A stretch of DNA of 64,000 nucleotides from Thermoleophilia bacterium UBA6103 (GTDB taxonomy: Bacteria > Actinomycetota > Thermoleophilia > UBA2241), in NCBI GenBank assembly GCA_002423545.1, contig DIWP01000046.1:32437-96436 (forward strand). The letters run 5' to 3'. Below the pieces are notes generated by a model. That model had not been told where the DNA came from, searched no databases, and worked only from the letters and a program-made list of their open reading frames with translations. Of this stretch, positions 56,701-58,658 are shown one piece after another; the first letter of the stretch is position 1; every line of letters begins with the position of its first letter. Both the position numbers and the translations under genes were made by a program.

Positions 56701-58658
56701 TCGCGCGGGCCAACCAGCTGGCGGCGGAGGCGGAGGACGCCAACGCGGCCAAGAGCGAGTTCCTGGCCAACATGAGCCACGAGATCCGCACGCCCATGAA
56801 CGGCGTCATCGGGATGACCGGCCTGCTGCTGGACACCGACCTGGAGCCGGAGCAGCGCGAGTTCGCCGAGACCGTGCAGAGCAGCGCCGAGGCGCTCCTG
56901 GTGATCATCAACGACATCCTCGACTTCTCCAAGATCGAGGCCGGCAAGCTGGTGCTCGACAGCATTCCCTTCAACCTGCGCGACCTGATCGAGGACACCC
57001 TGACCATCCTCGCCCCGGCGGCGCACACCAAGCAGCTGGAACTGGTCAGCCTGGTCTATCGCGACACGCCGCTGTCGCTGGTGGGCGACCCGCTGCGGCT
57101 CAAGCAGGTGCTGACCAACCTGATCAGCAACGCCATCAAGTTCACCAACGAGGGCACCATCGCGGTGCGCGCCATGGTCGAGGACGACAGCGCCGAGCGT
57201 GCGCAACTGCGCATCAGTGTGCAGGACACCGGCATCGGCCTGACCGACCAGGACCTGCGCGCGCTGTTCCAGGCCTTCAGCCAGGCCGACAACTCATTGT
57301 CGCGCCAGCCCGGCGGCACCGGCCTGGGGCTGGTCATCTCCAAGCGCCTGATCGAACAGATGGGCGGCGAGATCGGCGTCGACAGCATCCCCGACGAAGG
57401 CTCGGAGTTCTGGATCAGCCTGAACCTGCCCAAGGCCCGCGACGACATCGAAGACCACCCTCACCCGGCCCTGCTCGGCCGTCGCGTCGGCCTGCTGGAG
57501 CAGCACCCGCTGGCGCGCCAGGCCCTGCAGCACCAGCTGGAGAGCTGCGGCCTGCAGGTGCAGGCCTTCGACAGCCTCGAACAGATGCAACAGGTGATCG
57601 GCGCCGAGCGCCAGGGCAGCCAACTGATCGACCTGGCGGTGCTGGGTGTCACCCGTCGTGAAATCGAACCCGAGCAGCTCAGCCGCTACCTGGCGGAGAT
57701 CGAGGCCCTCGGCTGCCAATGCGTGGTGCTCTGCCCGACGACCGAGCAGGCCCACTATCACGACGCCCTGCCCGGAGGGCATACGCACACCCAGCTGCAG
57801 GGCAAGCCGGCCTGCACCCGCAAGCTGCAGCGCGTGCTGCTCGAACTGGTGCGCCCGCAGCTGACCTATAACGAACCCGAGCAGCCCGCGCCCAGCCGCG
57901 CCGCGCGGGTGCTCTGCGTGGACGACAACCCGGCCAACCTGCTGCTGGTCAAGACCCTGCTCGACGACATGGGCGCCGACGTCATCGCGGTGGACAATGG
58001 CCCCGCGGCGCTGGAAGCGGTCAAGCAGCACCCGTTCGACCTGGTGCTGATGGACGTACAGATGCCAGGCATGGACGGACGGCAGACCACCGAAGCCATT
58101 CGCCAGTGGGAGAGCACCAGCGGCGCGGCGCCGTTGCCGATCATCGCGCTCACCGCCCATGCCCTGGCCAACGAAAAGCGCTCGCTGCTGCAGAGCGGTC
58201 TCGACGACTATCTGACCAAGCCGATCAGCGAACGCCAGCTGGCCCAGGTGGTGCTCAAGTGGACCGGCCTGGCCCTGCGCAGCCAGCCACAACGCACCGT
58301 GGAACTGCTGCCGCCGCCGGAGCAGGCCCTCGCCGTGCTCGACGCGGAAGAAGGCCTGCGCCTGGCCGCCGGCAAGGCCGATCTCGCCGCCGACATGCTC
58401 AGCATGCTGCTGCATTCGTTGGCCGCTGACCGCCAGACGATCCGCGAGGCGCGCCAGGCCGGCGATCGCCAGGCGCTGATCGAACGCGTCCACCGCCTGC
58501 ACGGCGCCACCCGCTACTGCGGCGTGCCGCAACTGCGCAGCGCCTGCCAGCAGAGCGAAACCCTGCTCAAGCAGAACCACCCCGACAGCGAAGCCGCGCT
58601 CGACGAGCTGGACGCGGCCATCGGTCGACTGGAGCAACAAGCCCGGGTCGACAGCTGA
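53793..58658 (+). CDS. Giant multi-sensor hybrid histidine kinase: N-terminal polytopic membrane domain - extracytoplasmic domain - 4 to 5 PAS - HisKA - HATPase - REC - HPt; the C-terminal module is BarA/GacS-like
   Basis: A continuous 1621-aa ORF. H-box [16 protein letters not shown]. The HATPase N/G boxes, REC ([23 protein letters not shown]…[14 protein letters not shown]) and HPt ([13 protein letters not shown]) align closely with E. coli BarA. Codon usage changes inside the gene near 56.8-57.0 kb. Confidence 0.8.

Follow-up and report, generated by a model that had tools for sequence, protein, structure and literature searches.

Background

Inter-genome misassemblies are usually discussed for closely related strains, rRNA and mobile elements. 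The inter-genome translocation misassembly, or chimeric contig, is a class defined in work on misassembly detection, for example in metaMIC (PMC9661791). The stretch of DNA that we analysed (64,000 nt in full, called the window in the following) very probably comes from a contig of this class. As in the misassemblies treated in that work, a single community supplied its two flanks from different genomes, conserved sequence common to distinct organisms surrounds the join, and the composition is discontinuous at the breakpoint. Unlike in the usual cases, the partners here are from different phyla, the repeat consists of 37 nt of a protein-coding signalling-domain motif, and the outcome is an in-frame ORF that resembles a credible gene.

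The product of this ORF can be compared with two groups of hybrid histidine kinases. Its C-terminal 580 residues, from the second half of HisKA through HATPase_c, a central region and REC to HPt, are 100% identical to the GacS protein (GacS/BarA type) of the Stutzerimonas parent. It differs from GacS in that the sCache_4 periplasmic domain, the HAMP domain and the upstream neighbourhood of gacS are all missing; a Pfam scan of the ORF found neither sCache nor HAMP but PAS domains instead, and where GacS has its N-terminus, an unrelated kinase contributes a multi-pass membrane region and four PAS domains. Residues 1-1041 are 100% identical to the protein P0089 and 87-90% identical to its family members P0001 and P0002. 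The upstream synteny of this second family is also the same as in the window (modABC-like transporter, MASE3-SpoIIE, EamA, VapBC). On the other hand, all natural members of the family, with lengths of 1,666-1,675 aa, end in a HATPase-REC-HPt tail of their own, and the next gene encodes REC-GGDEF; the window lacks both this tail and this gene.

Results

One ORF from two parents

In the following, parent A stands for the source of the left part of the window and parent B for the source of the right part. A three-way ungapped comparison has shown that the window equals parent A up to position 56952 and parent B from position 56916. The overlap is the exact 37-mer ATCCTCGACTTCTCCAAGATCGAGGCCGGCAAGCTGG, and bases were neither added nor lost at the join. 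The segments and the ORF that spans them are as follows.

1..56915, no strand, parent A-specific segment (ENA assembly ERZ27315036, contig k141_140645; record position = window position + 32,740)
56916..56952, plus strand, junction 37-mer common to both parents (three-way ungapped comparison)
56953..64000, no strand, parent B-specific segment (ENA assembly ERZ27315036, contig k141_245045, reverse complement; record positions from about 28017 to 20970)
53793..58658, plus strand, chimeric 1,621-aa ORF (Pfam domains; identity by segment)

According to Pfam, the chimeric ORF consists of a membrane region, four PAS-type domains, HisKA (residues 986-1051), HATPase_c, REC and HPt. Residues 1-1041, that is the membrane region, the four PAS domains and the first half of HisKA, come from P0089, the kinase of parent A. 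Residues 1054-1621, that is the remaining HisKA, HATPase_c, REC and HPt, come from the GacS of parent B, and the 37-mer encodes the 12 HisKA residues 1042-1053. The identity of P0089 to the ORF product is 100% over residues 1-1040 and then only 15-60%; GacS of parent B (L001) gives the mirror image of this pattern, with 100% from about residue 1042. The phosphorelay core HisKA-HATPase_c-REC-HPt is present, with a HisKA to which both parents contribute.

The first-pass annotation, made from the sequence alone, had placed an abrupt switch of genomic background at 56750-57050, within the HisKA/HATPase coding region of a sensor kinase and without a break of the frame. The exact junction (56916-56952) does fall inside this interval and inside the Pfam HisKA domain, and the frame is intact. 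Note that the 37-mer sits at homologous codons of the two kinases, so that the frame is kept automatically and the in-frame join is no additional coincidence. The 1,621-aa ORF is almost certainly not a real gene, existing in neither of the two organisms.

Parent A, a Thermoleophilia-like bacterium

Window positions 1-33921 and 43793-56952 match contig k141_140645 (L127, L126 and L005) with zero mismatches and at a constant offset, and positions 33922-43792 are a 100% match to two contigs from the same organism, the 140,122-nt JGI contig TOLCLC_10006851 of 3300002498 and the Logan contig SRR5323190_47. On k141_140645 (186.9 kb, ERZ27315036) the left kinase is intact: it is the 1,675-aa PAS hybrid kinase P0089, and the REC-GGDEF gene follows it. 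P0089 was found in the top cluster of a search with residues 1-1041, which led to the family of 1,666-1,675-aa PAS hybrid kinases. The native upstream neighbours of this kinase are the VapBC genes, and the same order is also seen in the relatives L002-L004.

52811..53233, minus strand, VapC (PIN), parent A (called genes of L005 and L131)
53230..53490, minus strand, VapB (RHH), parent A (called genes of L005 and L131)

With POR/KOR subunits, Pro_dh, PIN+RHH pairs and 4-nt gene overlaps, all of which we could confirm, the left side has the gene content that had been described for it.

The native layout of parent A around the 37-mer, from 5 kb upstream to 2.8 kb downstream, is colinear with JGI stretches from three samples, at 92% (L002 and L003) and 90% (L004). 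These stretches include the native C-terminus and the next gene, REC-GGDEF. Furthermore, the native left kinase shares its final 232 residues, at 100% identity, with P0090, an NCBI-sourced protein of 232 aa from a 20,682-nt contig. P0090 starts just past the REC motif, which is itself a stretch common to gacS. Judged by its sequence, P0090 is a candidate for the native 3' end of this kinase that a misassembly would have displaced and left behind.

The organism of parent A is known from metagenomes alone. Its nearest named relatives are a Thermoleophilia MAG (L088; 66% nucleotide identity over 1.7 kb) and two proteins, labelled "Actinobacteria bacterium" (50% identity) and "Thermoleophilia bacterium" (45%). 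The placement of parent A as a Thermoleophilia-like member of the Actinomycetota is our best estimate from these similarities, not a proof.

Parent B, a Stutzerimonas chromosome

The window positions 56916-64000 (7,085 nt) have zero mismatches to positions 8184-15268 of L001 (k141_245045), whereas 5' of 56916 the window shows only the ordinary similarity to be seen between HisKA domains. Contig k141_245045 (51.5 kb) carries an intact 906-aa GacS with the architecture sCache_4-HAMP-HisKA-HATPase-REC-HPt, in the context relA-rlmD (tRNA-U5-methyltransferase)-cysM-like PALP-LysR-gacS-mnmC. The genes that follow the chimeric ORF in the window are those of this parent.

58733..60703, plus strand, mnmC, the native downstream neighbour of gacS (exact product on k141_245045)
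60807..61364, plus strand, Tll0287-like/DUF3365, parent B (called genes of L001 and L141; order as in L140)
61766..62521, plus strand, TauE, parent B (called genes of L001 and L141; order as in L140)
62559..62798, minus strand, YjiS-like/DUF1127, parent B (called genes of L001 and L141; order as in L140)
62895..63749, plus strand, LysR, parent B (called genes of L001 and L141; order as in L140)

Each of these five had already been named as downstream content from the sequence, and each was recovered here.

The right segment is 99.8% identical to Stutzerimonas stutzeri 24a75. Across the 37-mer, the parent B contig L001 is colinear with the genome of this isolate (L052/L140) at 99.84%, and an intact gacS is seen in five further contigs. 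In the four metagenome contigs L142 and L144-L146 the intact gacS has 906 aa and lies upstream of mnmC. The cluster of the mnmC product carries the names Stutzerimonas stutzeri, Pseudomonas sp. and Pseudomonas sp. BAY1663. By sequence identity, then, the right segment is Stutzerimonas (Pseudomonas stutzeri group) chromosome. The expectation that the two halves would have their best matches in different taxa has held: the left one is Thermoleophilia-like, and the right one belongs with S. stutzeri 24a75.

Change of codon and oligonucleotide usage within the ORF

Codon usage in the ORF 53793-58658 differs between the two sides of the junction. On the left, 9 GAA stand against 73 GAG, and on the right the two are level at 19 each (Fisher p = 1e-5); from left to right, CAA/CAG changes from 0/21 to 8/39 (p = 0.05) and TAT/TAC from 4/22 to 4/2 (p = 0.02). 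No difference between the two sides was seen for CAT/CAC and AAA/AAG. Amino acid usage also changes: Gln makes up 2.0% of residues on the left and 8.3% on the right, and Leu 10.1% and 15.2%. The GAA share by gene is about 10% over 0-53 kb and about 45% over 58.7-64 kb. These counts bear out what had been claimed about the left side, namely that Glu is encoded almost only by GAG, that CAA is essentially absent and that the codon regime is that of the first 53 kb, as well as the share of about 50% GAA to the right of the switch. Of the codons said to appear regularly on the right, CAA and TAT gain in share over their synonyms there, but CAT does not.

A blind multinomial change-point analysis of the codons in the ORF gave a log-likelihood ratio of 93, as compared with a maximum of 51 in the permutation null. 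When the change-point was conditioned on the amino acid, so that synonymous choice alone counted, the best split was at window position 56940, which lies within the junction 56916-56952.

The tetranucleotide distance to the left-hand reference, calculated in blocks of 3.5 kb, is 0.015-0.026 up to 56 kb, and it is 0.037 and 0.045 in the last two blocks. The GC skew changes its sign at about 57 kb, being positive before and negative beyond, and the cumulative skew has its maximum there. On the other hand, a scan of GC across the window showed no step at the join (0.68-0.72 throughout, 0.65-0.75 per kb, and 0.68-0.69 on both sides of 57 kb), nor was there one in GC3, which is about 0.9 on both sides in the ORF. 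Of the sliding-window comparisons that the first-pass annotation had proposed, the tetranucleotide profile jumps at the join, but GC and GC3 are flat. In summary, the change of background is one of codon usage, oligonucleotide usage and GC skew, without a change of GC content.

The 37-mer is a repeat among genomes

When 71 kb of parent A were compared with 22.6 kb of parent B, no exact match was longer than the 37-mer. Those next in length are 26 nt (in the H-box) and 21 nt (in the REC motif DLVLMDV). The suggestion that the chimera is homology-mediated agrees with this finding, as an exact word of 37 nt common to both parents lies at the join.

The same 37-mer occurs exactly in at least 120 GTDB species genomes from many phyla. 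Among the matches listed, the carriers in the Proteobacteria include many Pseudomonas as well as Beta- and Alphaproteobacteria; in the Actinomycetota, Actinophytocola, Nocardioides, Acidimicrobiales and Thermoleophilia are found. Further carriers among those listed belong to the Acidobacteriota, Planctomycetota, Verrucomicrobiota and Gemmatimonadota, and one is a cyanobacterium. On the strength of these exact matches, the 37-mer is a true inter-genome repeat among high-GC kinases. Its identity is kept by purifying selection together with the high-GC3 codon preference that is common to the partners.

Records of the junction and breaks of other contigs

An exact protein look-up has shown that the chimeric 1,621-aa product is recorded as P0111 (NCBI and JGI/IMG), on one contig of 140,358 nt. 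For the exact mnmC product, too, a contig of this length is recorded, and the window was therefore most likely cut from a deposited contig. The chimeric contig thus appears to be deposited in NCBI as well as in JGI/IMG. The product may occupy two deposits, which are not necessarily independent. A difference between the SdhA proteins P0094 (JGI contig) and P0091 (window) was considered as a sign of different deposits and rejected, as it amounts to L versus M at a non-ATG start.

Apart from P0111 on its one contig, we found no record of the junction, although a natural recombinant would be expected to show it in independent genomes or samples. It was absent from all 149 loci examined. A search with a 170-aa query spanning the junction, in which 8,000 candidates were scored and proteins of less than 300 aa were listed, returned no chimeric fragment; the best match had 82% identity over 89% coverage. 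The lack of a junction-spanning protein fragment in this search is weak evidence. P0112, the cluster representative of P0111, was considered as an independent protein across the junction and discarded: it maps to residues 1192-1447 only, wholly within the GacS part. In a scan of JGI metagenome DNA, a 70-mer across the junction was not found, but this negative carries no weight, as a left-specific control 75-mer was equally absent. An Rfam scan of 53-64 kb gave no match.

Logan contigs are built with a word size of k = 31, and two of them have an end at the 37-mer. SRR5323190_47, which is 100% identical to the window, passes the 5' edge of the 37-mer unbroken and stops at the 3' edge, its last base being window position 56952, the last base of the 37-mer. 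The other, SRR19543043_4625, is a Stutzerimonas contig of an unrelated run, and its first base corresponds to 56923, the start of the first 31-mer to leave the 37-mer. Two independent de Bruijn assemblies therefore break at one and the same branch point. Furthermore, there is no Logan source for the exact mnmC product, whereas proteins of the left genome have at least 7 Logan runs as sources, which one would not expect if the Stutzerimonas genes went along with that genome.

Discussion

Misassembly as the best explanation

That the window stems from an inter-genome misassembled contig is, in our view, highly probable. Both parent contigs, k141_140645 and k141_245045, come from one ENA assembly (ERZ27315036), and in both the native continuation is intact. 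Here we find flanks of about 100% identity to sources from different phyla, an exact common word, the co-occurrence of the two sources and a compositional break. To judge by their names, the k141 contigs would be MEGAHIT contigs at k = 141, in which every 141-mer is supported by reads. The reverse reading, with a genuine window and artefactual ENA contigs, was rejected because independent data back each of the native continuations: three JGI samples in the case of parent A, and the isolate genome and other contigs in the case of parent B.

The join probably came about as follows. Two members of one community, a Thermoleophilia-like actinobacterium and a Stutzerimonas, each have a hybrid histidine kinase with the 37-nt word in its HisKA region. 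An assembler with a word or overlap length of at most 37 would have met a common node with two entries and two exits; coming in from the actinobacterial kinase, it would have taken the wrong exit, out into gacS, and a plausible in-frame ORF of 1,621 aa would have been the result. Since the longest exact matches between the parents are 37 and then 26 nt, a graph with k between 27 and 37 should join them at this point alone. The identities of the flanks, the overlap, the intact parents with their independent backing and the contig breaks at the edge of the 37-mer are observations; that an assembler made the join, and the range of its k, are inferred.

Other explanations

A natural alternative would be a very recent recombination between phyla at the 37-bp identity in HisKA, with Stutzerimonas chromosomal DNA taken up by the Thermoleophilia-like bacterium. 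RecA-type recombination can work with an identity of 37 nt, so that such an event is physically possible. It would account for an in-frame join at homologous positions of one domain, with an architecturally complete hybrid kinase as its product; the two organisms are found together, the product is on record in deposited data, and the pattern of SRR5323190_47, with a single entry and an end at the 3' edge, would also be expected if native and chimeric molecules were mixed. Nevertheless, the window has not diverged at all from either of the co-resident parents, be it along the 57 kb of the one or the 7 kb of the other; both native junctions are unbroken in the k141 contig set, and the native 3' end (P0090) is found on an NCBI contig. 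The junction is missing from all 149 loci examined and from the protein fragments searched, and the difference in Logan sources between mnmC and the left-genome proteins also counts against it. The event would moreover cost the native kinase its C-terminus and put Pseudomonas-type housekeeping genes into an actinobacterium. We therefore regard it as extremely improbable. If it were true, there would be a functional PAS-GacS hybrid kinase and at least 7 kb of gammaproteobacterial chromosome in an actinobacterial genome.

A chimeric molecule made in the laboratory and then faithfully assembled, be it by template switching at the 37-nt homology during amplification or by ligation or cloning, is very unlikely, if not quite to the same degree. 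A homology-mediated switch at a conserved motif is typical of amplification chimeras, and such a molecule would supply real junction reads and could explain the path of the assembler; but one rare molecule would normally not outweigh the native paths over a contig of more than 140 kb, ligation chimeras need no homology and seldom land on it, and nothing in the sequence requires this extra step. Lastly, a construct made on purpose, in silico or by synthesis, such as a test sequence spliced from two pieces, would go well with the perfectly clean join and with the fact that both pieces are internal segments of existing contigs. We give it next to no credence because NCBI and JGI/IMG already list the exact 1,621-aa protein on a contig of 140,358 nt, and the mnmC product is recorded on one of equal length. 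Thus, among the kinds of artefact that the first-pass annotation had left side by side, the assembly artefact is the best fit and the deliberate construct falls away.

Consequences of the probable misassembly

With misassembly as the preferred explanation, the contig should be split at 56916-56952 and the deposited record flagged. Bins that are built on the 140,358-nt contig carry Stutzerimonas contamination, of which at least 7 kb are visible in the window. Joins of this kind escape checks that are based on GC, and they are caught by change-points in synonymous codon usage, tetranucleotides and GC skew.

Short, strongly conserved motifs of signalling domains with high GC3 are repeats between phyla, and as such they can trap assemblers that work with a small k and lead to fake fusions that stay in frame. 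The 1,621-aa "sensor kinase" itself should be kept out of annotations, models and counts of new domain architectures.

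Recurrence and gene content of the left genome

We asked where else the left genome, that is, the Thermoleophilia-like actinobacterium of window 1-56952, can be found. It was recovered at 99.98-100% nucleotide identity in several data sets (loci L128-L139), namely in the assemblies ENA ERZ27315036, JGI 3300002498 (TOLCLC_10006851, 140,122 nt) and JGI 3300001567, and in the Logan runs SRR5323190, SRR943309/11/12/13/15 and SRR942927. Presumably, these data sets represent one enrichment or site that was sequenced repeatedly. Since 140,122 nt is close to 140,358 nt, the length of the contig bearing the chimeric sensor kinase, TOLCLC_10006851 may be a sibling deposit of that contig.

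The left genome has two separate genes for a monofunctional proline dehydrogenase (Pro_dh), two toxin-antitoxin pairs and two short arginase-family ORFs:

11233-12213, reverse strand: Pro_dh, monofunctional, first copy
19204-20178, forward strand: Pro_dh, monofunctional, second copy
20366-20593 and 20612-21073, forward strand: two adjacent short ORFs (75 aa and 153 aa), both matching Pfam Arginase (PF00491)
21364-22070, forward strand: toxin-antitoxin pair, FitA-like RHH and PIN
52811-53490, reverse strand: toxin-antitoxin pair, VapB and VapC (RHH/PIN)

Both Pro_dh genes lie in a gene cluster for TCA-cycle enzymes and 2-oxoacid:ferredoxin oxidoreductase; this cluster comprises POR gamma/alpha/beta, succinyl-CoA ligase, malic enzyme and fumarase, as well as succinate dehydrogenase/fumarate reductase subunits (the SdhA flavoprotein, the Fe-S subunit and a CCG-domain protein). 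The arginase-matching ORF pair corresponds to positions 8119-8826 of the left-genome contig locus L126; that both neighbouring short ORFs match PF00491 suggests a single arginase-family gene that would be split or frameshifted in this genome. In relatives of the left genome, an additional PIN/PhdYeFM pair lies directly 3' of the native kinase.

A MITE-like insertion in the Stutzerimonas segment

The segment from the second parent, Stutzerimonas, carries one intergenic insertion:

61445-61656: MITE-like insertion, 212 nt, between the Tll0287-like and TauE genes

Its termini are perfect inverted repeats of 16 nt (CAGGCTGTTGAAAAAC / GTTTTTCAACAGCCTG), and it is flanked by a 5-bp direct duplication of the target site, CTAAC (61440-61444 and 61657-61661); a search of 53-64 kb against Rfam gave no match. 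Other Stutzerimonas strains (the isolate genome S. stutzeri 24a75, L140, and the metagenome contig L144) have the empty site GGGTCTAACCCGCC at this position. Because the Stutzerimonas parent contig (L001) also carries the insertion, it is native to the parent strain and has no relation to the chimera.

The chimeric protein and the words shared by its parents

An identical sequence of the chimeric protein is on record as P0111, according to the protein cluster member listing. The contig index does not contain this protein although P0111 exists, so that a negative result from that index does not equal absence.

The exact 37-mer common to both parents (56916-56952), which codes for a 12-residue motif of HisKA, occurs in at least 120 species genomes from many phyla (loci L006-L125). 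After it, the longest words shared by the two parents are the H-box, with 26 nt at 56766, and, with 21 nt, the REC motif DLVLMDV. Motifs such as these three are predictable hot spots of misjoins between genomes in high-GC communities.
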